This document shows, piece by piece, positions 17,714 to 60,100 of a stretch of 64,000 bases of DNA; the stretch's first letter is position 1; every line of letters begins with the position of its first letter. This DNA comes from Scenedesmus sp. PABB004. Lineage: Eukaryota. The notes under the pieces were generated by a model. It was not told the origin of the DNA. It did not search any database and saw only the letters and a list, made by a program, of their open reading frames with translations. The stretch spans positions 1,612,001 through 1,676,000 of the forward strand of contig CM026547.1 in the NCBI GenBank assembly GCA_014905635.1, written 5' to 3'. The position numbers and the translations under genes are program-made.

Positions 17714-20700
17714 TCAGGCCATGACCTCCTTGGCGGCCTTGACCACGTTGTCGACGGTGATGCCAAACTTGGCGTACAGGATGTCGGCGGGCGCGGACGC
17801 GCCAAAGTCGTCGATGCCCACAAACTTGCCGCTGCTCGTGGTGTAGCGCTCCCAGCCAAAGCTGCTGCCCGCCTCGACCGCGACGCGCGCGGTCACGGCC
17901 TTGGGCAGCACGCTCTCCTTGTACTCGGCGCTCTGCTCGGCAAACAGCTCCCAGCAGGGCATGGACACCACGCGCACCTGCGGCGGCGGCCGGGCGGCGC
18001 GTGAGCGCGGCGCGCTGGTGCGGCGGGCGCCGGGCAGCGGGCGCCACGCGGCCCGCGCCCCCGCGCCGCCCCAGCCCGCGCGCGCCGCCCCGCGCCCCGC
18101 GCCGCCCCAGCCCGCGCCGCCCCAGCCCGCGCCGCGCGGCGCACCTTCTTGCCGTCGGCCTCGAGCTTCTTGGCCGCCTCGACGGCCATGGGCAGCTCGC
18201 TGCCGGTGCCGATGAGGATGACGTCGGGCGTGGCGTCGCCGCCGTGGATGACGTACGCGCCCTTCTCGGTGCCCTCCACGCTGCAGCCGGGCAGGTTGGG
18301 CATGCCCTGGCGCGAGAGCGCGATGGTCGTCGGGCGCTTGCGGTTGCCGACCGCGACCTTGTACGCGCCCGCGGTCTCGTTGCCGCCGCACGGGCGCATC
18401 ATGAGCATGTTGGGCATCGCGCGGAAGCTCGCGAGGTGCTCGATCGGCTGGTGCGTCGGGCCGTCCTCGCCGAGGCCGATGGAGTCGTGCGTCATCACGT
18501 ACAGCACGCCGACCTGCGCCCCGGCGCGGCGGCGGGCAGCACGCGGTCAGCGCGCGGCGCGGCGGCAGAGCGGGCCGCGCGGCGCGCGCGCGTGCGCGGC
18601 GGCAGGGCAGGCCACGCGGCGCGCGCGCGCGTGCGCGGCGCGGGGGCGGGCCGTCACCTCGCTGAGCGCGCTCATGCGCATGGCGGAGCGCATGTAGTCG
18701 GTGAAGATGTAGAACGTCGCGCAGTAGGGGATGAGCCCGCTGTTGTGCAGCGCGACGCCGTTGACGATCGCGCCCATCGCGTGCTCGCGCACGCCAAAGC
18801 TGCGCGGCGGGGCCGGGGCGGCGCGGGCGGCGTGGTGAGGGCGCGCGAAAGGCCTCGCAGCCCCAGCCGCCGCCGCCGCCCCAGCCCGCCGCCGCGCCGC
18901 GCCCGCCGCCGGCCCAGCCCGCTGCCGCGGCGCGCGCGCGGGCGCACCGCATGTTGCGCTCGGCGTAGCTGCCCTTCTGGAAGTCGCCAAACATCTTCAT
19001 CAGCGTGAGGTTGGAGGGCGCGAGGTCGGCGCTGCCGCCGATGAGGCCGGGCAGCACGGGCGCGAGCGCGTTGAGCATGATCTGGCTGTACTGCCGCGTC
19101 GCGAGGCCCTTGTCCTCGGGCGTGTAGCTCGGCAGCGCCTTCTCCCAGCCCGCGGGCAGCTTGCCGCTGCGCAGGGGGCGCGCGCGCGAGACAGGGGCGG
19201 GGTCAGCGGGGGCGCGCGAGGGCGCGAGGGCGGCAGCGCGCGCGGCGCGGCCGGGCGGCGCGGCCGGGCGGCGCGGCCGGGCGGCGCGGCCGGCGCGCGC
19301 GGCCGCCGTGCGCGCACCTGAGCAGGCCCTCCAGCTCCTCCGCCTCCTTGGGGTGCTTGGCCTTGTACGAGGCCATCGCGGCCTTCCACTCCTCCTCGGC
19401 CGCCGCGCCCTTGGTGACGGCGGAGCGCATGACGTCGTAGACCTCCTGGGGCACCTCAAACTCGCCGTACGGCCACTTGAGGTTCTCGCGCGTCGCCGCC
19501 GTCTCCTCGGGGCCCAGGGGCGCGCCGTGCACGTCGTGCGTGTCGGCCTTGTTGGGCGAGCCGTAGCCGATGAGGGTCGAGACCTTGATCAGGCTGGGCT
19601 TGTCGGTCACCGCCTTGGCGTTGGCGATGGCCTGCGCGCACGGGCGGCGGCGCGGCGGGGGCGCGCGTCGGCGGCGGCGCGGGCCAGCGGCGCGCGCACC
19701 CGCGCTGCCGCTGCTGCTGCGGCTCCGCGGCGCCGCGCCGCGTGCGGCGGGCGGCGGCGCTGGGCGGCGCTGGGCGCCGCGCGCGCGCGCGCGCCTTGCG
19801 CAGGCCGTCAAAGTCGGTGTTGCCGTCCTTGACGTGCTGCACGTGCCAGCCGAGCGCCTCGAAGCGCGCCGACACGTCCTCGGTGAAGCTGATCTCGGTG
19901 TGGCCGTCGATGGAGATGTTGTTGTCGTCGTACAGCGCGATGAGCTTGCCCAGGCCCCAGTGGCCCGCGAGGGAGCAGGCCTCGTTGGAGATGCCCTCCA
20001 TCATGCAGCCGTCGCCGAGGATGCAGTAGCTGCGCGGCGCGCGGGCGGGCGCGTGGGCGGGCGGGCGTGTGGGCGGGCGCGCGGGCGCGCGCGGCGCGCG
20101 CGGGCGGCAGGCGGCGCGGGCTGGCGGGGCGCTCAGGCGTGCGCGCGCGGGGCGCTGCCGCTGCCGCTGCCGCTGCCGCTGCCGCTGCCGCTGCCGCTGC
20201 CGCTGCCGCTGCCGCTGCCGCTGCCGCTGCCGCTGCCGCTGCCGCTGCCGCTGCCGCTGCCGCTGCCGCTGCCGCTGCCGCTGCCGCTGCTCCCCCCCTG
20301 CACGCGCCGCTGGCAGCCCCCCTGGCGCCGCAGCGCGCGCGCCCGCGACGGCCGCCGCGCCGGCCCCCGCCCACCCCCGTGGCGGCGCTCACGTGTAGTG
20401 GTCCACCACCTTGGCGTCCGGCTTGTTGAAGCGCGCCGCCAGGTGCGCCTCAGCGGCGGCGAGGCCGACGGCGTTGCAGATGCCCTGGCCGAGCGGGCCT
20501 GCGGCGCGGCGCGGCGCGCGCAGCGCGGCGGTCGGCGCGGCGGCGCGGCGGCGCGGCGGCGCGGCGGCGCGGCGGCGCGGCGGCGCGGCCGCCCCCCGCC
20601 GGCCGGCGCGCGGGGCGCGCAGGCGGTGCGCTCGTGGGGCCGTGCGCGCGGGCCCGGCGGCGGCTGCGGCGCGCACCGGTCGTGACCTCCACGCCGGTGG

Positions 20701-37527: not shown

Positions 37528-40500
37528 ATGGCGGGCTCCGAGTCGGGCTCCAGCGAGACCAGCGTCCACACCGAGCCGTCGGCGGGGGACGCGTACCGCG
37601 ATGCGTACGAGCCGTACCGCACCGCGGCGGGGCGGCCCGAGGTCGGCGCGTTCCGGCGCTGGTGGCTGCGCAACCCGCTCAACGCGCTCTGGCCGGTCAA
37701 GCCCAACCAGTGGGACACCTTCCAGAAGGTCGCCGCGGGCGTGCCCCACGCCGAGGCGGTCAAGGGCGGCGCCAACGTGCGGCTGCAGGACATTACGGCG
37801 CGCGGGCCCACGCCCGCAGAGGTGCTCGCGGGCGGCGGCTTCGACGTCGAGGCGCTGCCCAGCGACGAGGCGTGGTTTGGCACGCCCGACCCCGCCATCT
37901 ACGCGGCCGGCACCAACAGCCTGACCAAGGCGCAGCTCGCCGAGGAGGCGGCCAAGGGCAGCGTGGTCACGCTGCGCCAGCTCAAGCAGCACCTCGCGGC
38001 CGCCAGCGACGAGGAGCTCGAGGTGCGTGCGGCGCGCGGGGCACGCGGGGCGGCGGGGCGCGCGGGGCGGCGGGGCACGCGGGGCGGCGGGGCGCGCGGG
38101 GCGGCCGACAGCCGCGCGCGCGGGCGGCGGCGCCCGCGGCGGGCGCGCTCACGCCGCCGGCGCCGCCGCGCGGGGCGCGCGCGCGCAGCTCTGGCGCAAG
38201 GTGCTGATGGTGCAGCGGCTGCGCGACGAGGCGTTTGTGGAGCTGCCGGGCGGCGCGGGGCGCGTGAGCGTGTGGGACCTGTGGACCTACATCAAGGGCA
38301 ACCCTGAGCTCAAGGCCCTCGCGGAGCGCAACCCAAACCTGGTCGCGCCGTCGCAGGGCATGACCCGGTGCGGCGCACGGGCCGGCGCGGCGGCGCGCGC
38401 GCCCAGCGGCGGCGGCAGCGGCGCGCGCGCGCCGCGGCCCGCGCGCGCCGCGACGCGCGCCGCGCCCGCCGCGCCGCCGCAGCGAGGAGCGGATCAAGGC
38501 CCTGCAGCACGTGGCGCCGTGGAAGCTGTGCGCCAACGAGCGCCACATGGTGCTGCCGCCCGACGTGGCCGACAAGCTCGAGTGGGGGCTGCTGGCGGGC
38601 GGGAGCTGGTACAGCCGCCGGCCGACGCGCTGGCTCAAGGTGCGCCGCGCCCGCCGTCGCGGCGCGGCCGGCCGCGCCTGCCCGCCGCCGACGACGCGCG
38701 GGGCGCCCGCCGACGCGCCGCCGCGCCCCGGCGCGCAGGGCCTGGACGGCGTGAAGGACTTTGACTTTGGGCTGTACGTGCACGAGGCGGCGGCGCGCGA
38801 GGCGCTGGCGGGCACGTGGGCGGGGCGCGCGCCCGGCGAGGTGCTCGCGAGCCCCGCCTTTTACGGCGACGCGCTGCGCGCCGCGCCGGCCATGGGCATG
38901 AGCCTGCTGGCGGTGGCCAGCCGGCCGCTGCCGCTGGAGGAGGTCACGCGGTGCGCGGGGCGCGCGCGGCGGCGCGTGGGCTGGCGCGCGCGGGGCGGCG
39001 CCGGCGCGCCCGCTGGCGCCGCTCACGAGCCTGCACCGCCGCCGCCCCCGCCGCCGCCGCCGCGCAGGGCGTGGGAGCAGCGCATGCGGCAGCAGATTGA
39101 CAGGCTCGAGCCGCCGGGCGGCAGCGCGCCCAGGGTGCTGCTCTCCACCTCTGCGGCTACGGGCACCGGCTCGGCCAGCGAGACCGGCACGGCCTCATCA
39201 TCCGAGGAGGAGAGCGGCAGCAGCAGCGAGGCGGCAGCCCGCCCGCCGCCGTCTCCCGCGGCGCGGCCTGCTGCGCCTCTGCCGGCAGCGCGGCCCGCGG
39301 GCAGCCCGCAGGCAGCAGCGGCGGTCGCGCCGCCGCTGCCGCCACCGGCGCCCAGGCCGGCGCCAGTGCAGCAGCAGCTGCAGCAGGCCGTTGTGCAGCC
39401 GCTGCCGTCGCCGCCGTTGCAGCAGCAGCAGGCGCAGCCGCAGCAGGCGCAGCAGCAGCAGGCGGAGCAGCAGCAGCAGGCGCAGGCGCAGCAGGCCGCG
39501 CCGGCGCGCGTGCGCGAGGTCGAGCCTCGCTACCGCGGCCTCGCGCAGCTGGCCGGCCTGTTTGACCGAGAGCGCCTCGCGGGGACCACCGAGCTGCTGG
39601 ACATACGCGGCCGGCAGCTGCGGGAGGGCGCGACGATCATGTTCTCTGCGCACCCGAGCGGCGCGCTGCTGGTGCAGGGTGCGGCGCGCGGCGCGGGCGG
39701 CCGAGGGAGGGGGCGAGCGCGCGAGCGCGCGCGCCGCGCCGCCCGCGGCGCGCGCCCACGCCGCCGCGCCGCCGCGCCGCCGCGCCGCCGCGCCGCCGCC
39801 GCGCAGCGATCTCGCCCGGCCTGGTCAAGGAGCAGCGCAGCTACCTGCTGGGCGCCGTGGCCGACCCGCTGCTCACGTCGGCGCTGCTGAGCATGTTCAT
39901 CGACCCGGCCGCCAGCCTGGACCCGGAGTTCACCGCCGCCGCCGGCGCCACGCTGCTGGCGGTGACGAACGGCTACCGCACCGGCCTGCGCCAGCGCAGT
40001 GCCGCGCCGGCGCCGCCCGGGGGCACGCCCGACGCGCTGCGGCGCCAGCTCACGCGGCACGCCAAGTGGGGCCTGCCGGACGTGGGCAAGGCGCCGGCGG
40101 CGCAGCCGCTGCTGAAGGGCGTGCGGCGCGAGGTCACGTACCAGCAGGTGGGCAGCACGGGCGCGGCGGCGCCGGCGCGGCGCGGGCGCGCCGTCGCGCC
40201 CCGCAGCCCGCCGCCGCGCCCCCAGAGACCGACCGCTGCCGGCCCGCCCGCCGCAGATCGAGCAGGCGTTTGAGGGCGCGCTGCGCGCGGCGGCCGCGGT
40301 CGACGCGCCGGACGGGCTGGACCTGGGCGAGCCGGGCGCGCGGCGCGCGCTCGCGGCGGCGCGCCGCGCGGCGGCCGAGGCGGAGCTCAAGCAGCGGCTG
40401 GGGCGTCTGGGGCTGGACGTGTCGGGCCTGGCGCTCGGCGCGGACGACACGCCGGCCGACCTGCTCTCGCTCGCGCGCCCGCTCACGCTGGCGGCGGGCG

Positions 40501-40529: not shown

Positions 40530-41369
40530 GGCGCCGCCTGGCGCCGATCGGCGCCGGCACGCGGGGTGGGCGTTTGCGTGGCGGCGGCGGCAGTCGAGGC
40601 GGTGGCGGCGCGGAGGCGCCGAAACCGTCCTGGTGCGTGGCTTGCCCGCGGCCGCGCCGACAGATCCGCGCCTAACTCGGCAGGCCACTCGCGCCCCGCG
40701 GTCGGGCGCGCGGCCCCGGCGGGCATGGCGGGCGCGGGCATCCCGCGCGCGCATCCCGGCAGCTCCGCGCCCGGCCGCCTGTGCGCCCCCGAGGCCCGCG
40801 TTTCGTGATCGTTGTGAAAACAGGCACTCTTTGGACCAGTCTTCAGCCCAAAATTCGCGCACGTTGGAGGGGAGCGGGACGGTCGGGCGGCTCGCGAGTG
40901 ACAACTGGCGCGCTCGGAGGCCTTGATAGCCCGCGTGCCCCGCCAACGACCTCCCCACACCCACACCGACCTGGCCTGTCGCCCTGCAACACGCTCCCCG
41001 CGCATCTACACGCGCACAAGCCACCGCCCGCCAAGCCCGAGCAGGTGCGCCCGCCAGCTCGCCCCGCGCGCCGCGCGCCGCGCAGACCCCAGCGGGCGCA
41101 CGCTTTTGCGCCGTGCTTTTGATGCCAGGCCAGCGCGCCAGCTGCAGGCGCGCGGCCAGGCGGGGCGGGGCAGTCCACATCAGCTCAGCTCGCCAGCTCG
41201 CGGGCAGCTCAGCGCGGGCCCGCGCCCGCGTGGCGCGGCGCCCGGAGCATTGAAGCTTATTCAATATGCCACCGCGACCGCCCAGCCGAGCTCACGCGCC
41301 CCACCTGCGCCGCTGACCCCGCCCCCGCATGCGCCCGCTCTCCCTCCCCGCCCGCAGGCAGCACACACC

Positions 41370-42070
41370 ATGGCCCGCCTCGCCGTGGTCGCCCTGGCCC
41401 TCTTCGGCCTCCTGGCCGTCGCCAGCGCAGCAGGTGAGGGCCTCTCCTGCGTCGCGCGCGCCGCGCGCTGCGCGCATCGCCGCGTTCCGCCAGCCCGCGC
41501 GCCAGCGCCCGGGGACTGCGCGGGCTGCGCCCGCGCGGGATGCTTGTGCGCAACACATCGATCTGGGCTGGCACCCGACAGTTGCCCGCGCTGCCGAGCG
41601 CGGGCAACTGCCGAGCGCCGCGACGCCCTTGGCGCCGCCTGACTGCCGCCGCCTGGCCGCCTGCGGCCGCCCGGCTTGACCCTCTGCCTGCCCCCGCCCT
41701 GCCCGCCGCGCCACGCCACGCAGACTCGCAAACCTCGCGCAAGATGCTGGGCTGGGACTGGCCGACCGCCCGCGTGACCACCCCCATCGGCAAGGTCAAC
41801 GTGCGCCCGTACAGCTGGAACGTGCAGAACCTGGTCGGCGGCAACCTCCTGTTCCCCAACTGGTGGGTGTCCGGCTTCCCCGAGGCCACCGGTGGCAGCC
41901 GCCGCCTCCAGGGCTGGGACTGGCCGACCGCCCGCGTGACCACCCCCATCGGCAAGGTCAACGTGCGCCCGTACAGCTGGAACGTGCAGAACCTGGTCGG
42001 CGGCAACCTCCTGGTCCCCAACTGGTGGGTGTCCGGCTTCCCGGAGGCCACCGGCGGCTCCAAGCACTAA
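41370..42070 (+). CDS. Secreted repeat-peptide precursor A (136 aa): signal peptide plus two Trp-rich 50-aa cores
   Basis: Exon 1 41370-41433 encodes MARLAVVALALFGLLAVASAA, intron 41434-41723 is GT..AG, and exon 2 encodes DSQTSRKML-[GWDWPTARVTTPIGKVNVRPYSWNVQNLVGGNLLFPNWWVSGFPEATGGS]-RRLQ-[same core, F>V]-KH*. The unit is 162 bp. TGTAA lies at 42136-42140. Confidence 0.88.
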
Positions 42071-42633
42071 GCCGCGGGCTGCTGGCTGCCCGCACCATCC
42101 TGGGCTGGTGCGAGGCGCGTGTGCGTGTGTGTGCGTGTAAACTTGTATCAGTGGCCGCCCGCGTGGCCGCCCCCTTGGCTTGGTGTCGCACGGCTCCGCC
42201 GCGCTCGTGCGCGGCGGGCGCGCACGTGCGCATGCGCTGCCGTATGCCAGCGCTGCTGGGCTGCCGCCGCGCGCGCCCCACAGGCGGCATACCCACAGGC
42301 GGCACGTGACCACCGCATGCACGCGGCCAGCTGGGCCGCTGCCGCCACAGCAGTTGTGGTGGGCTGCATATTTCTGCGTGAGTGTGGTGGTGCCACGGCC
42401 GCGGGTTGGTGCCGCTCTGGGTTGGTGTGTGCGGCGAGTACTCACACCAGCGGCGGTAACCCAAGCAAACCCTGATTCGCCGACCTCCAGCGCGCTGGTG
42501 GGCCTCAGCGTGCAGCAGCCCGCGCGAGGCCGGTCAGCCATGCCGCCGCCGCGATCGCCGCGCCAGCAGCACCAGCCGCGCCAGCAGCACCCGCCGCGCC
42601 AGCAGCACCAGCCGCGCCAGCAGCAGCGGGTGC

Positions 42634-43088
42634 CCCGCCGCGCCGCCAGCGCAGCGCAGCCCGCGCCACCAGCCCACGACAAGCAGCCGCGGTCTGCGCT
42701 CAGCCGCGGTCGCGGGGACGGGCAGCGCTGCTGCTGCTCGCCCGCCTGCAAGAGGGTGTGTGCTGGCGCCTCGGCGCAGGTGCGACGCCAGCGGCGGCGG
42801 CCGCCGCGGCCGCGGCGCCAGGCCCAGGGGTGTCGCCGCCGGGTGCTGAGCGCTGGGCGGGGGCAGCGCGATCGGGCAGCCGCGCTCGCGCTGAGTGTTA
42901 CTTGGCGGTCATTTGAGTTGGCCGCGGCGCGGCCCGCTCCCAGGCATGCTGCCGCAGCACCGCCGGCAGCGGCGCGCACACGGCGCAGGCTCGCAGCGTG
43001 CACCTGCCTCCCCGCACCGGGATCCTGCGGCGCGGGTCAACTGCTTGCTGGCTGCCGCCCGGCGTCCGGGGCGCACGCTGCGGACGCG
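42634..43088 (+). repeat. ~455-bp direct repeat, copy 1 (copy 2 at 47162-47616)
   Basis: Constant 4528-bp offset (ORFs 42895/47423 and 42998/47526 start identically). I saw only two substitutions by eye. Confidence 0.93.
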
Positions 43089-44151
43089 CGGCACGCCGCG
43101 CCGCCGACCGCCCTCCCCGCCGGGCGTCCGCCGGCGCGGCGCCGGCCGCGCGCCGGCTGCAGCAGCCTGCTGTGCGGATGGTGGTGGGTCTGCCGTCACT
43201 GCCCGCGCACCAGCCCAGCCGCGCACGGCTGCGGGCGCCGCCGGGCGGCCGCCGCGCGTGCCCTGTCGCCGGCCCGCCGGGCGCGCCGCGCCGCCGCTTG
43301 CTGGGCGGCCGGCGAAGCGTGCAGCGCTCACCCGGCTGCCTGATGCCGCTGAGGGCCAGGACGAAGCCCGCCCCCGCCGCAGTTGGCGGCCGCCGCCGCG
43401 CCGGCAGCGCAGCGCTGGCGACGGCCGGCGCTGGCGCCCGCGGCCGCCGCGAGCACGCAGTCGATGGAGAGGCCCTTAAAGGAGAGCCGGGCCGCTGGCC
43501 AGGCGCCGCGCAGGGCCAGGCGCGCGCGGGGCGGGCGCCAAAGCAGCGCGCCCGCCAGCGGTCGCACCTCCTCGGGGGCCTCGGAGGCCCCGGTATTTAG
43601 TTCAGACTAATATCGAGCTGCCCCGCCGGCGCTTCAGGCGCGTGGATCGTTGGTCAACCGATCGCCTGGTGGACTTCCGGCGCCCCGCGCGCCATATGCC
43701 CGCCCCCCGCCCTCCGCGGCCACTCTGCGCCCCTCCTCCGCGCTGCAGCCACATTCACGGCGCTCCCTGGCCAGCCACGCCTGCTGACTCCGGCCAGCGC
43801 TGTGCTGTGCGCTGCTGCGGGCCCGGCGCGCCCTCCCCATCCCGGTGAGCGCGCCAGACCGCGCGCGCGATTGTCAATTGCACCTCCACGCAGCGCCGCG
43901 GCGCGCGGCGCGACAGCGCGCTCGGGGCGGGCGGCGCATCTCGCCGATGCGCGCACCTCCCTGGCCGGGCGCTGCGGCGTGCCCAGCAGCCCGCCGGCAC
44001 GCCGATCGTGACCTCCAATAAGCCACCAAATTGACGCGCTCACTCGCGCCCCGCGCCGCCCTGCCCCGCGCCCGCCACGCCCGACGCCCGTCATGCGCCA
44101 GGTCGCCGACCCCTCGCCACGCCCGCCGCGACCGGCAACCGACGCCGCGCA

Positions 44152-46203
44152 ATGAAGACGTCAAAGGTCATCGCGGCCCTGCTCATCGCCGGCCTGGCTG
44201 TGTCCGCGGCTGCCTCGCACGGTGGGTGGCGCCGCCGCGGCAGGGCGGCCGGGCGCCCCGCAACCAGCCAGCGCGCGCCGCGAGCCGCGAGCGCCGGTGG
44301 GGGCCGGGGGCGGCAGGAGAGTCGCAGGCGCGGTTCAGCTGAACGATAGCAGCTCGGGCAGCGCAGGGCGCGTGCGTTGCGGTGGCAGACCAGCACGCTG
44401 GCCGTGGGCGCGCGGCGCACAGCGAGCGCCACCGCTCCACCGCCGCCAGTTCTGGTGAAACTCCGACTCACATTCCCCTGCCGCCCTGCTGCCTGCCCCT
44501 GCTGCTTGCCCCCGCTTGCAGGCCGTGAGCTGAGCCAGGCCGCTGCTGCGAAGGACGCCAAGGCCGCCGACGCCAAGGCCGCCGACGCCGCGGAGGAGGC
44601 GCCCGCCAACCCCTACGGCGACGGCCTGCCGACCGTGACCGTGTCTGGCCCCTCGAGTATCCCCAGCTTTGCCGCCCCCACCTTCAAGTACGCGTACAAG
44701 GACGGCGTGGGCGCGTTCCAGGCCTGGAACGGTGGCATCGAGCTCCCCAAGGTCATCGACCTCGGCGGCGTGCGCGTGACCCGCCCCGGCCTGCGCGGCC
44801 GCCGCCTGAGCCAGGCTGCTGCGGCTGCCAAGGACGCCAAGGCCGCTGACGCCAAGGCCGCTGACGCCGAGGAGGAGGCGCCCGCCAACCCCTACGGCGA
44901 TGGCCTGCCGACCGTGACCGTGTCCGGCCCCTCGAGCATCCCCAGCTTTGCCGCCCCCACCTTCAAGTACGCGTACAAGGACGGCGTGGGCGCGTTCCAG
45001 GCCTGGAACGGCGGCATCGAGCTCCCCAAGGTCATCGACCTCGGCGGCGTGCGCGTGACCCGCCCCGGCCTGCGCGGCCGCCGCCTGAGCCAGGCTGCTG
45101 CGGCTGCCAAGGACGCCAAGGCCGCTGACGCCAAGGCCGCTGACGCCGAGGAGGAGGCGCCCGCCAACCCCTACGGCGATGGCCTGCCGACCGTGACCGT
45201 GTCCGGCCCCTCGAGCATCCCCAGCTTTGCCGCCCCCACCTTCAAGTACGCGTACAAGGACGGCGTGGGCGCGTTCCAGGCCTGGAACGGCGGCATCGAG
45301 CTCCCCAAGGTCATCGACCTCGGCGGCGTGCGCGTGACCCGCCCCGGCCTGCGCGGCCGCCGCCTGAGCCAGGCTGCTGCGGCTGCCAAGGACGCCAAGG
45401 CCGCTGACGCCAAGGCCGCTGACGCCGAGGAGGAGGCGCCCGCCAACCCCTACGGCGATGGCCTGCCGACCGTGACCGTGTCCGGCCCCTCGAGCATCCC
45501 CAGCTTTGCCGCCCCCACCTTCAAGTACGCGTACAAGGACGGCGTGGGCGCGTTCCAGGCCTGGAACGGCGGCATCGAGCTCCCCAAGGTCATCGACCTC
45601 GGCGGCGTGCGCGTGACCCGCCCCGGCCTGCGCGGCCGCCGCCTGAGCCAGGCTGCTGCGGCTGCCAAGGACGCCAAGGCCGCTGACGCCAAGGCCGCTG
45701 ACGCCGAGGAGGAGGCGCCCGCCAACCCCTACGGCGATGGCCTGCCGACCGTGACCGTGTCCGGCCCCTCGAGCATCCCCAGCTTTGCCGCCCCCACCTT
45801 CAAGTACGCGTACAAGGACGGCGTGGGCGCGTTCCAGGCCTGGAACGGCGGCATCGAGCTCCCCAAGGTCATCGACCTCGGCGGCGTGCGCGTGACCCGC
45901 CCCGGCCTGCGCGGCCGCCGCCTGAGCCAGGCTGCTGCGGCTGCCAAGGACGCCAAGGCCGCTGACGCCAAGGCCGCTGACGCCGAGGAGGAGGCGCCCG
46001 CCAACCCCTACGGCGATGGCCTGCCGACCGTGACCGTGTCCGGCCCCTCGAGCATCCCCAGCTTTGCCGCCCCCACCTTCAAGTACGCGTACAAGGACGG
46101 CGTGGGCGCGTTCCAGGCCTGGAACGGCGGCATCGAGCTCCCCAAGGTCATCGACCTCGGCGGCGTGCGCGTGACCCGCCCCGGCCTGCGCGGCAAGCAC
46201 TAG
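44152..46203 (+). CDS. Secreted repeat-peptide precursor B (583 aa): signal peptide plus six ~93-aa units
   Basis: Exon 1 44152-44221 encodes MKTSKVIAALLIAGLAVSAAASH, intron 44222-44521, and exon 2 begins GRELSQ followed by units RRLSQAAAAAKDAKAADAKAADAEEEAPANPYGDGLPTVTVSGPSSIPSFAAPTFKYAYKDGVGAFQAWNGGIELPKVIDLGGVRVTRPGLRG. It ends GKH*. Third positions are strongly C/G-biased. Confidence 0.9.
44524..46194 (+). repeat. Coding tandem array, six units of 279 bp (first unit one codon shorter)
   Basis: Antisense ORFs recur at 44613, 44892, 45171, 45450, 45729 and 46008 (period 279). Confidence 0.97.
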
Positions 46204-57100: not shown

Positions 57101-60100
57101 GCGCGAGGTGCATCGTGCCGAGCGCCGCGGCGCCGCCGCCGTCGTCGTCGCCGGCCGCCGCGGCAAAGGTGACGGCGGTGACGCCACTGCTCGCGTCGAG
57201 GCAGGCGCCGTCGCCGAGGGAGATGAGGTCGAAGCCCTGCAGGTCGTTGGTGTCGATGACGACGCCCGACCCCACGCGCACGCCGAGCGCGCGGTACCAC
57301 CAGCACAGCAGCTCGGTGCGGCGGATGGCGGGCAGGAAGCTGGCTCGCGCGCCCTGCGGGGGGGGGGGGGGGGGCGCGGCGCGCGGCGCGGTGCGCAGCG
57401 CGCGTCAGCGAGGCGGCGGGAGCGGGGCGGCGCAGGCGGGGCGGCGCGCGCGGCGGGGGCGGCGGCAGCTCACGAGCGTGAGGACGTTGACGAGCCAGTG
57501 CCGCAGGAAGGCGCCGCCCCAGAGCGGCGCGGTGCCGGCCCTGTACCGCCCCACGAGCAGCCACTTGCCGCCGATGGTCCACGCCGCAAACAGCGCCATG
57601 CTCGCGAGGTCAAACGCGGGCAGCAGCGCGAGCGCGGCCCAGCCGAGCCGCGCCGTTGCGGCAAAAAAGCCGACAAACGGCGCCGCCGTGGTCACGGCCG
57701 ACAGGCCGCCCAGCAGCACGAGCGCCGCGACCTGCATGGCCGTGGCCCAGGCGACCGAGGGCGCCGCCGCGCCGGCGCCGCGCGGCGGCGGCGCGGCGCC
57801 GTCCTGCTTGGCGCCGCCGCCGCGGCCGCCGCCAGCCGCCGCGGCGGCCTTGCCGGGGCCGGGCAGCAGCCCGCCGCGCGCGCCGCCGCCGGGCGCGCCG
57901 GGCGCGACCCCGGCGCCTGCGCCGCGCAGCGCCGAGGCGGCCGCGGGGTCGGCGCCACCGCTGGCAAAGGGGCTGGAGAAGCCCGGCAGCTGCGGCGCGG
58001 CAGCGTCGAGCGCCGCCACGCCGGGCGGGCCGAGGAAGAGCCGCGCGTGCGGCAGGGCCTCGCCGCGCGAGGAGACCTCGCCGCTGGCGCTCGACGCGGC
58101 GCTCGCGGCGGGCGCGTGCGCCGCGCCGCCGGCGCCCTTGGCAAACGCCGCAAACGCCGCGCCCGCCGCGGCAAAGGCGGCCTGGTAGGCCGCGACCGCC
58201 GCGTGCGTGGGCGGCGCGCCGGTCGCGCGCGGGCCGGCGCCGCGCAGCGCGTCGTCGCCGTCGGCCCGCGCGGCGGGCGTGCCGCCGCCGAGCGCGGCCG
58301 AGACGGCCGCCGCGACGTTGGCCGCCACGCTCGCGGCGGCGGCCGAGAAGCCGTCCGTGAGGCTGCTGCCGCCGCTGGGCGCGACGGACCACGCCGAAAT
58401 GCTGCCGCCGGCGGACGGCAGCTCCCAGGCCGACGCGCTGACGCTGGAGCCGGCCCCGAGCGGCGCCTGCAGGCTGCCCGCGCTGCCGGCCCGGATGAAG
58501 CTGCCGGCGCAGCTGGGCACCGCAAAGCTGCCGGCGCCGCTGGGGCCGAAGGGGAGCGGCCCCAGGACCGACTCCTTGGAGGCCAGCGCCTTGGGCGGCG
58601 CGCCGCCGGCGGCGGCCACCGCGGCGGCAAAGGCCGCCAGCGTCGGCGCCGAGTAGATGAGCAGGCCGCTCATGGCCGGCAGCGCCAGGCCCGCGCGCAG
58701 CTGGCTGTTGACGCGGCCGGCAATCAGGCTGTTGCCGCCGAGGGCGAAAAAGTCTGACTCGGGCCCCAGCGCGCCGACCTCGACGCCCAGCGCCTCGGCC
58801 CAGGCGGCCGCGACGAGGGCCTGCAGCCGGTCGGTCGCGCATGCCGCCCCCAGGGGCTTGGCGCCGGCCAGCGCCGCTGGCGGGGACGCCGGCGGGTGCG
58901 CCTCGGCGGGGCTGGTGATGCTGGAGCTGCTGCCCGAGCGCGCGCTGAGCGCCGAGCCGCCGGCGGCGGCCACCGCGGCGGCAAAGGCTGCCAGCGTCGG
59001 CGCAGAGTAGATGAGCAGGCCGCTCATGGCTGGCAGCGCCAGGCCCGCGCGCAGCTGGCTGTTGACGCGGCCGGCAATCAGGCTGTTGCCGCCGAGGGCA
59101 AAAAAGTCTGACTCAGGCCCCAGCGCGCCGACCTCGACGCCCAGCGCCTCGGCCCAGGCGGCCGCGACGAAGGCCTGCAGCGGGTCGGCCACGCACGCCG
59201 GCGCCAGGGGCTCGGGCGAGGGGCTGCTGCCCTGGCTGCTGGCCTCCTCGCCCGCCGGCGCCGCCACGGCAGGCAGCGCGCGGCCGGCGGCGCGGCCGCC
59301 GGCGGGCCCAGCCGGCGCCGGCGCCGGCGCGGCGGCGGGTCGCGGCGGGCGCACGCCGTCGCGCGCAAAGTCGGGCGGCGGGAGCGCCTTTCGGTTGACC
59401 TTCTCGCTGGGGAGCAGGGGCAGCGCGTCGAGCAGGACCACCGCAGTGGGTATCATGTAGTCTGGCAGCGCGCCCGCGAGGCCGGCGACGAGGCCGCCGC
59501 GGTCGAGCGCCGCGGGGCTGACCCACGCGGCGAGCTGGTCCTGCCCGGTCGTGGGGTTGGCCGCGAGCGCGCACGCGACCTGCGCCACGCCCGGGAGCGC
59601 GCCCAGCACCGCCTCGACCTCCTGCGGCGGGGGCCGCCGCGGAGCGGGCGGGGGGTCGGGCCGGGCGCGCGCCGCGCGCGCGCGCGCCGTTGCGAGCTGC
59701 CGCACGCTGCCACGGGGCTGCCGCGGGGCTGCGCGCTGCCGCGCCGCGCGCCGCACGCCGCGCCGCGTCGCTGGCGCACCTGGAGCTCGATGCGCAGGCC
59801 GCGCAGCTTGACCTGGTGGTCGACGCGGCCGAGGAACTCGAGCACGCCGTCGCCGCCGGGCAGCCAGCGCACGGCGTCGCCGGTGCGGTACATGACGTGC
59901 GTGTGGCTGGCGGGGCCCTCCGCGAAGGGGTTGGGCACAAAGGTGGTCGCGTTGAGCTCGGGGCGCTTGAGGTAGCCGCCCGCGACGCTGACGCCGCTGA
60001 TGAAGAGCTGCCCGGGCACGCCGCGCGGCACCGGACGCAGCGACGCGTCGAGCACGTAGAGGCGCGCGTTGTGGATGGGCCGGCCGATGGGGATGGTCGC

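Follow-up and report, generated by a model that had tools for sequence, protein, structure and literature searches.

A pair of algal repeat genes and the proposed release of secreted polypeptides in multiple copies

A 64,000-nucleotide stretch of the genome of Scenedesmus sp. PABB004 (assembly GCA_014905635.1, contig CM026547.1, positions 1,612,001 to 1,676,000; hereafter the window) contains two neighbouring plus-strand genes, gene 1 (41370-42070) and gene 2 (44152-46203), which have one layout in common. Their sequences suggest that each product is processed into several copies of a single exported polypeptide. The gene and repeat structure, the conservation of the two families, of their boundary motif and of their tails, and the variation in unit number are observed directly. 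That the encoded proteins are cleaved in one way or another we consider probable. That they are secreted polyproteins cut specifically at R-x-L-x sites of the type recognized by S1P, the reading developed here, we place somewhat below an even chance.

Results

Two adjacent genes share one layout

The G+C content is about 74-82% throughout the window, which otherwise consists of intron-split eukaryotic nuclear genes (XRN exonuclease, PP2C, transketolase, RPN6, P5-type ATPase, and an AMP-binding/PP-binding enzyme). In each gene of the pair, a first exon that encodes only the signal peptide is separated by a phase-1 GT..AG intron from a second exon that carries everything else (Table 1). The signal peptide is followed by a short pro-piece ending in R-x-[L/M]-x, then by the tandem units, and then by K-H-stop. 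With the linker counted in, the array of gene 1 is 2 x 54 amino acids with the joint RRLQ, and that of gene 2 is 6 x 93 amino acids with the joint RRLS; RRL thus stands at every internal boundary (1/1 in gene 1 and 5/5 in gene 2). The sequence CAAGCACTA closes both reading frames (42061-42069 and 46194-46202), giving K-H and then a stop in each. Every element of the architecture described in the initial annotation of this DNA, namely exons, introns, sites, tandem cores and K-H-stop, was located in both genes.

The exon-1 peptides were called as signal peptides by heuristic features: in both, a basic N-terminal end precedes a hydrophobic core of 12 residues (Kyte-Doolittle 2.97), and the residues in front of the predicted cut are small (A-S-A in gene 1). 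In the predicted frames the G+C content of third codon positions (GC3) was 0.98 for gene 1 and 0.925 for gene 2, against 0.54 and 0.57, respectively, at second positions (GC2), which is the coding signature expected for so GC-rich a genome.

Tandem Repeats Finder reported 1.9 copies of 162 bp with 97% identity in gene 1 (41749-42058), and 6.0 copies of 279 bp with 99% identity in gene 2 (44530-46194). Units 2 to 5 of gene 2 do not differ by a single base. Between units 1 and 2 we counted, besides one codon indel, 9 synonymous and 2 non-synonymous substitutions, and one of the non-synonymous ones alters the second residue of the site motif; we take the ratio as a sign of purifying selection on the unit. 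The two unit cores of gene 1 differ at 3 bases, 1 of them non-synonymous. No further paralogue was detected within the window by tblastn.

Both genes belong to conserved families

Both genes are members of small uncharacterised families, whose named members come from the Scenedesmaceae (Tetradesmus, Scenedesmus and Hariotina). Family 1 comprises 7 clusters of relatives with 61-89% identity to gene 1, including Tetradesmus obliquus A0A383VTE7 / OEZ86_011169 and a gene model of Hariotina reticulata. For family 2, a two-unit query against 1.84 billion representatives retrieved 7 proteins and a profile search 20 proteins; the family includes T. obliquus OEZ86_011171 with 3 units and a protein of Scenedesmus sp. 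NREL 46B-D3 with 4. When gene 2 was used at its whole length (search at 307-979 residues), no relative was found among the 8000 candidates scored, the relatives found being shorter. Compared with relatives from other genera, family 1 shows 73-90% identity and the core of family 2 up to about 70%. The number of units varies in family 2, with exact module boundaries, from 1, 2, 3 and 4 to the 6 in the window, P0045 and P0011 being single-unit members (handles of this form denote the proteins compared), and every member of family 1 carries at most 2.

The orthologues of both genes align to exon 1 as well as to exon 2. The leader of gene 1 is 62-77% identical to orthologue leaders such as those of P0002, P0005, P0020 and P0028, and for the T. 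obliquus protein P0041 the alignment of the leader starts at window base 44152, the ATG of gene 2. In orthologue models from long genomic contigs (P0001, P0004, P0017 and P0026) the leader is lost at the position of the gene 1 intron, and in P0042, from a 502-kb contig, at that of the gene 2 intron. In relatives from contigs of 0.9-1.2 kb, leader and units lie in one frame; we infer that these short contigs are spliced transcripts, an indirect sign that the orthologues are expressed. Judged from the comparison, both genes are real, conserved nuclear genes of a GC-rich chlorophycean alga.

R-x-[L/M]-x is conserved at the unit boundaries

Boundary motifs were counted in 33 proteins of family 1 (the window protein and 32 relatives) and in 31 relatives of family 2. 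In family 1, R-x-[L/M]-[L/Q] precedes 52/52 of the GWDWP units that have at least four residues upstream (RRLL 13, RKML 10, RKLL 9, RELQ 9, RRLQ 3, RSLL 3, RHLL 2, RQLQ 2 and RDLL 1), and the Arg and Leu of the linker are invariant in 8/8 aligned proteins. In family 2, R-x-[L/M]-x-Q precedes 50 of 52 assessable units; truncation left 10 more units unassessable. The exceptions are P0011, whose signal peptide runs straight into Gln, and P0046, which starts inside an exon.

Not every site is dibasic at Arg and the residue next to it. The non-dibasic sites, 17/52 in family 1 and 18/50 in family 2, are mostly those of first units, and have an acidic residue, Gln, His or Ser following Arg. They are RELQ (9), RQLQ (2) and RDLL (1) among the first sites of family 1, and RDLK (10), RELQ (4), RELS (2) and RELN (2) in family 2; the three RSLL sites of family 1 have basic residues just upstream. 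Between units, family 2 has R-K or R-R without exception; the corresponding family-1 sites are dibasic or have basic residues upstream, except for R-H in the P0004 cluster, which contains the Hariotina model P0024. Met replaces Leu at 10/52 family-1 sites, all of them first sites, and these also read R-x-x-L. On these alignments, the boundary feature conserved across the relatives is R-x-[L/M]-x and not the dibasic pair. As a check that the pattern goes beyond chance, the boundary motif and the basic or His-containing tail were found to recur in orthologues from other genera.

Several observations argue for a cut site rather than a linker. The motif also stands before the first unit, a place at which a linker between domains would serve no purpose, and it is retained in single-unit genes. 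The unit cores of the window contain no internal R-x-[LIVM]-x. In P0011 a signal-peptidase site takes the place of the motif, which suggests that the mature N-terminus falls after R-x-L-x.

Tails and unit ends

Each relative stops a few residues past its last unit with a basic or His-containing stub or, in 8 family-2 proteins, with nothing after Gly. The tails of family 1 read SKH, ARRHQ, ARRRSQ, DKRRMQ, KGN, KSGRKL and similar, and the P0004 cluster, Hariotina model P0024 included, ends with K-H-stop as gene 1 does. The 30 family-2 tails scored were none (8), H (6), KH (5, the window included), RKH (3), RKMK (3), RRRAQ (3), KKL (1) and one read-through. Compared in this way, K-H-stop is a conserved, shortened version of the inter-unit spacer.

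In family 2, Gln starts every unit, all intact tails follow Gly, and Gly directly precedes the first basic residue at 28/30 inter-unit sites, the other two reading G-R-R-R-L-S. The sequence pattern of an amidation substrate (-X-Gly followed by basic residues, or a C-terminal Gly) is therefore present in family 2, and it is lacking in family 1. In the parts of PMC6919629 that deal with amidated products of Chlamydomonas, these stem from C-terminal -Gly-basic ends, one of them after loss of -Arg and -His, and the removal of His is ascribed to carboxypeptidase-B-like enzymes. By analogy, the units of family 2 may be pyroglutamyl and amidated.

The units resemble no known domain

A single unit of either gene gave no significant match in Pfam. 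Weak scores of the six-unit protein to DUF6725 and Ribosomal_60s were rejected as summed low-complexity repeats. Profile searches of the PDB with both families revealed no relative (best E-values 0.81 and 0.53), and the search of the ESM Atlas gave no usable match. A known folded repeat domain, which the initial annotation had considered as a different identity for the units, was thus recognized neither in Pfam nor among PDB profiles. AlphaFold2 predicted strand-rich units at low confidence, with a mean predicted local distance difference test (pLDDT) score of 38.3 for family 1 (21 sequences) and 45.4 for family 2 (8 sequences). The units are rich in Trp, Gly, Val and Pro, and contain no Cys, no N-x-S/T sequon, and no Ser-Pro or Pro-rich wall motif. 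The cores of the two genes had been described as dissimilar, in agreement with an hhalign profile-profile probability of 0.3%, at which a common origin of the two cores was rejected.

Gene neighbourhood and further features

In T. obliquus the locus tags of the two families are two apart, and the longest contig recorded is 11,144,458 bp for each of them; in one other genome the recorded longest contig is again the same for both families, 502,343 bp. Upstream of gene 1, residues 11-417 of the Hariotina reticulata model P0024 match 37777-40150 with E-values of 4e-39 to 6e-13, and the C-terminal end of P0024 is a family-1 protein. By these matches the gene neighbourhood is conserved; a functional link is not thereby proven, since microsynteny is generally conserved too. 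The public Hariotina model P0024 wrongly fuses two genes, the orthologue of the upstream neighbour and the family-1 protein.

The T. obliquus locus tag 011170 sits between the tags of the two families, and a small gene in the spacer between genes 1 and 2 is possible; the open reading frames (ORFs) of this 2-kb spacer matched no Pfam family. The same spacer contains an 18-bp tandem repeat (3.8 copies, 96%) at 42557-42625. The pattern CAATAWGCCACC matches the 64-kb window at just two places, 41262 and 44016 (0.09 expected, though the pattern was derived post hoc from these two sites and the count is therefore no test). These AT-rich islands, 108 and 136 bp upstream of the respective ATG in DNA of about 78% GC, may form a shared core-promoter element. 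Downstream of gene 1 there is a candidate polyadenylation signal, TGTAA, which is the chlorophycean motif.

Some family members deserve separate mention. In P0010 and P0046, family-2 proteins from genomic contigs, the sequence turns unrelated after R-K-L-A-Q, and P0046 opens with a Leu-rich stretch before its unit. The models suggest that each site is followed by a phase-1 intron in Tetradesmus-like genomes and that an exon there corresponds roughly to one unit, compared with a single exon for the six units of the window. In the divergent family-2 branch P0053/P0056, the leader and pro-piece (MAR..., with A-E-S-Q before the site) resemble the leader of the family-1 protein P0002 (BLASTP, 14/43 identical, E 0.001 for a single comparison). 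The sequences hint that both families share an ancestral leader exon despite their unrelated cores. Within clusters of at least 90% identity, P0053 and P0056 (1 and 2 units) and likewise P0044 and P0057 (2 and 3 units) differ by one unit, through either copy-number polymorphism or assembly collapse of repeats. The family-2 proteins P0008 and P0058 bear the source name 'aconitase B' without sequence support, a mis-annotation.

Candidate loci in metagenomes were judged to be chance: of 65 pattern stretches none was confirmed, and a degenerate DNA pattern gave 41 loci with a single match each. A tblastn comparison of 39 proteins with these 41 loci gave 3 weak matches of 20-44 residues (E about 5e-4), also regarded as chance. 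Elsewhere in the window, a 354-bp tandem duplication (2.1 copies, 84%) at 58602-59336 lies inside the minus-strand AMP-binding/PP-binding gene, which has two PP-binding stretches, and a perfect (CGCTGC)23 microsatellite occupies 20153-20290 in the transketolase gene region.

Table 1. Window positions of the features of genes 1 and 2 and of their surroundings
Feature	Position	Strand	Details
Gene 1 exon 1, predicted signal peptide	41370..41433	+	64 nt, 21 codons + 1 base; ATG at 41370
Gene 1 intron	41434..41723	+	290 bp, GT..AG, phase 1
Gene 1 exon 2	41724..42070	+	
Gene 1 pro-piece	41724..41749	+	ends with first site R-K-M-L (41738-41749), within SRKML
Gene 1 unit 1	41750..41899	+	50-residue Trp-rich core, start GWDWP
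Gene 1 inter-unit site R-R-L-Q	41900..41911	+	
Gene 1 unit 2	41912..42061	+	
Gene 1 tail K-H and stop TAA	42062..42070	+	
Gene 2 exon 1, predicted signal peptide	44152..44221	+	70 nt, 23 codons + 1 base; ATG at 44152
Gene 2 intron	44222..44521	+	300 bp, GT..AG, phase 1
Gene 2 exon 2	44522..46203	+	
Gene 2 first site G-R-E-L-S	44522..44535	+	
Gene 2 six units	44536..46194	+	each Gln...Gly, 88 or 89 residues
Gene 2 R-R-L-S sites	44800-44811, 45079-45090, 45358-45369, 45637-45648, 45916-45927	+	
Gene 2 tail K-H and stop TAG	46195..46203	+	
AT-rich 12-mer CAATATGCCACC, possible shared promoter element	41262..41273	+	108 bp upstream of gene 1 ATG
AT-rich 12-mer CAATAAGCCACC	44016..44027	+	136 bp upstream of gene 2 ATG
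TGTAA, candidate polyadenylation signal of gene 1	42136..42140	+	
Upstream neighbour gene, no Pfam family	37777..40150	+	five-piece match to P0024 residues 11-417

Discussion

For these precursors we infer a route that comprises secretion, a series of cleavage and trimming steps, the kind of enzyme and the modification of ends. Once the signal peptide is removed, a Golgi endoprotease of S1P/SBT6.1-like specificity (R-x-[L/M/I/V]-x, with cleavage after the fourth residue) would cut at every R-x-L-x site. The first cut would free a pro-piece of about 7-10 residues and the remaining cuts would part the units, so that gene 1 would supply a 50-residue Trp-rich polypeptide in 2 copies and gene 2 an 88/89-residue polypeptide in 6. 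Carboxypeptidases would then trim the leftover R-x-L-x of internal units and the vestigial K-H tail of the last one, giving all copies the same end, and the units of family 2, with their Gln start and Gly end, may be finished as pyroglutamyl, C-terminally amidated products.

The sections of the cited papers that concern these enzymes describe the specificity of S1P as R-X-(L/V/I)-X (PMC7162652) and the sites of SBT6.1 as RXXL/RXLX, with in vitro cuts after RRLR and RRRAL (PMC4983112); S1P/SBT6.1 cuts in the early Golgi of the secretory pathway (PMC7162652, PMC4983112). An S1P-like subtilase of Chlamydomonas, Cre14.g628800, is listed in PMC6313938. Like substrates of S1P (SKI-1)/SBT6.1, the algal proteins have R-x-(L/V/I)-x or R-x-x-L, at 52/52 units of family 1 and 50/52 of family 2. 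Because about a third of the sites are non-dibasic while Arg and Leu/Met are conserved, R-x-L-x fits processing of the S1P/SBT6.1 type or of the diatom "RXL" type better than Kex2. Of the analogies drawn in the initial annotation, the one to RxL cleavage by S1P/SBT6.1 agrees with the conserved R-x-[L/M]-x, and those to Kex2, fungal repeat proteins and prohormones are weakened by the same non-dibasic third. Its proposal of multicopy secreted peptides stands as far as secreted-type repeat genes with a shared layout are concerned, and has to be amended in that the units are polypeptides of 50-89 residues, not short peptides.

Several points weigh against this route. In this organism both precursors are known from DNA alone. 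Many rows in the motif counts are near-identical members of clusters (at least 90% identity), which leaves about 8 independent lineages per family. With a length of 50-89 residues, strong conservation and a predicted richness in strands, the units could be small domains that stay joined. All inter-unit sites of family 2 and most of family 1 are also dibasic, where a Kex2/furin-type cut is possible, and a cut at R-x-L-x leaves four residues on each internal unit, requiring extra putative trimming. In family 1, Gly is set apart from the basic residues by S, A, D or N; since these units do not end with Gly directly before basic residues, the idea of amidation is restricted to family 2. No domain of a subtilase, amidating enzyme, glutaminyl cyclase or carboxypeptidase was found (E <= 1e-5) in 136 ORF pieces of the window, that is, in 146 stop-to-stop ORFs chosen by GC3 contrast minus 10 in the gene-pair region.

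The proteins could instead be uncleaved modular secreted or wall proteins, whose beta-rich domains stay linked after removal of the signal peptide alone and in which R-x-L-x serves as a linker or as a sorting or quality-control motif. Such a protein, rather unlikely in our judgement, would accommodate units of 50-89 residues, which exceed typical released peptides, and the inter-genus identities given above, but it would leave unexplained why the motif stands before the first unit too, why a signal-peptide cut replaces it in P0011, and why single-unit members occur. Strands were modelled in each unit, with poor confidence (mean pLDDT 38 and 45) and for sequences that match no Pfam or PDB domain; Cys, N-x-S/T sequons, and Ser-Pro or Pro-rich wall motifs are all missing. 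Homogenised repeats, such as the identical units 2-5 of gene 2, are also known in structural repeat proteins, yet here the last unit retains just a short basic or His-containing stub.

A different enzyme at the same boundaries is the other kind of alternative. With a Kex2/furin-type cut after the dibasic R-R or R-K, two leftover N-terminal residues would be removed and carboxypeptidase-B-like trimming would expose Gly in family 2. Each of the 6 internal window sites has R-R, the inter-unit sites of family 2 are all R-K or R-R, and G-R-R and G-R-K are classical signals for amidation plus cleavage; subtilisin-like convertases, carboxypeptidases and an active amidating enzyme are described for Chlamydomonas in the relevant parts of PMC6313938 and PMC6919629. 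We nevertheless regard this as improbable: first-unit sites are often non-dibasic in both families, the inter-unit site of the P0004 cluster with Hariotina P0024 is R-H, the conserved Leu two places past Arg would be needless for a dibasic enzyme, and the N-terminus of P0011 lies at Gln, not two residues earlier. Even less credible is an aspartic protease of the plasmepsin V / ASP5 kind, cutting after Leu in a Plasmodium export element (PEXEL, R-x-L-x-E/Q/D) or its Toxoplasma counterpart (TEXEL, R-R-L-x-x). PEXEL is cleaved after Leu, and the enzymes and motifs are described, in the sections of PMC4764566 devoted to them, for Plasmodium and Toxoplasma. R-x-L-x-Q, found in 50/52 assessable units of family 2, corresponds to the PEXEL pattern and R-R-L of the internal window sites to the TEXEL core, but the fifth place in family 1 is Gly and not E/Q/D, Met stands for Leu in 10/52 sites, the first sites are R-E-L or R-K-M and not R-R-L, and P0011 indicates a terminus one residue further on.

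Among algal precursors, those of the diatom silaffin type processed at RXL, to which the initial annotation did not refer, are the closest precedent for the layout. As outlined in PMC4557024, silaffin Sil1p (repeats R1-R7) has RXL after the signal peptide and at the close of each repeat, its mature peptides lack RRIL/RRNL, and frustulins, cingulins and silacidins are likewise RXL-processed; the endopeptidase is referred to in that account as unidentified. The likeness lies in a signal peptide followed by an RXL site and in tandem repeats each ending R-R-x-L. The units here differ in being Trp/Gly/Val-rich, 50-89 residues long and devoid of the Lys/Ser-rich silica-forming character; the sequences are unrelated, no link to silica is known, and the named relatives are green algae. 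The plant S1P substrates RALF23 and GLV1/CLEL6 each yield one peptide from one or two sites, according to the passages on them in PMC7162652 and PMC4983112, whereas the algal precursors consist of tandem near-identical units and their cleavage by S1P is putative.

Fungal KEX2-processed repeat proteins (KEPs), yeast alpha-factor included, are characterised in the available part of PMC6339444 by a signal peptide, tandem near-identical cores, a basic inter-core motif and a variable number of cores, and the pipeline used there cuts at KR/RR/KK and requires at least 3 repeats. The algal genes are similar in having a signal-type leader, near-identical tandem cores, basic joints and variable copy number. 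Against the repeat threshold, gene 2 has 6 units, and gene 1 and all its relatives have at most 2; as to the sites, R-R is found at 6/6 internal sites of the window, yet 17/52 and 18/50 unit-start sites of the two families are non-dibasic. The units are also far longer than the 9-24-residue alpha pheromones described, and the host is not a fungus. Nearer in lineage are the Chlamydomonas precursors Cre03.g204500 (GATI-amide), Cre12.g487700 and Cre17.g722300, which are likewise green-algal and secreted with -Gly-basic ends, and the family-2 tails G-K-H, G-H and G-R-K-H resemble the substrate of the -Arg and -His removal that precedes amidation in one case there. In contrast to the multiple unit copies found here, the C. 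reinhardtii prepropeptides are stated, in the sections of PMC6919629 covering them, to lack multiple copies of one peptide, and there is no sequence relation.

As for the product, we lean weakly toward an abundant vegetative polypeptide associated with the matrix or wall, or a conserved ligand, over a fast-evolving pheromone or defence peptide. The latter is disfavoured because the units are highly conserved between genera, and the amplification of copies suggests a product needed in quantity. A more specific scheme, which we hold to be doubtful, has multi-copy pro-hormone-like precursors from which up to six identical polypeptides would be released by S1P-type cleavage, those of family 2 becoming pyroglutamyl and amidated (...Arg-NH2) after loss of the stub (K-H, H or R-K-H), and the conserved neighbourhood would hold a second family, Trp-rich and unrelated to the first.

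The initial annotation had not recognized the system as described in green algae, a search with four unit motifs matched no paper, and topical searches, covering titles and abstract openings, found no published description of these families either. The layout itself has precedents in diatoms and fungi, and sites of the S1P type occur in plant pro-peptides; new are the two families, the lineage that hosts them, the length of the units and the conserved stub. Multi-copy secreted precursors are well known in animals, fungi and diatoms. Organisms of the present lineage are known to form colonies and are used in biotechnology. If our reading is true, chlorophycean algae would also produce secreted polypeptides in multiple copies, processing of the R-x-L type, as by plant S1P and the diatom RXL protease, would reach a third algal setting, and two conserved, abundant-looking extracellular products would be open to study. 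Should the units of family 2 prove to be pyroglutamyl and amidated, this would be, to our knowledge, the first multi-copy amidated secreted peptide system of the green lineage.

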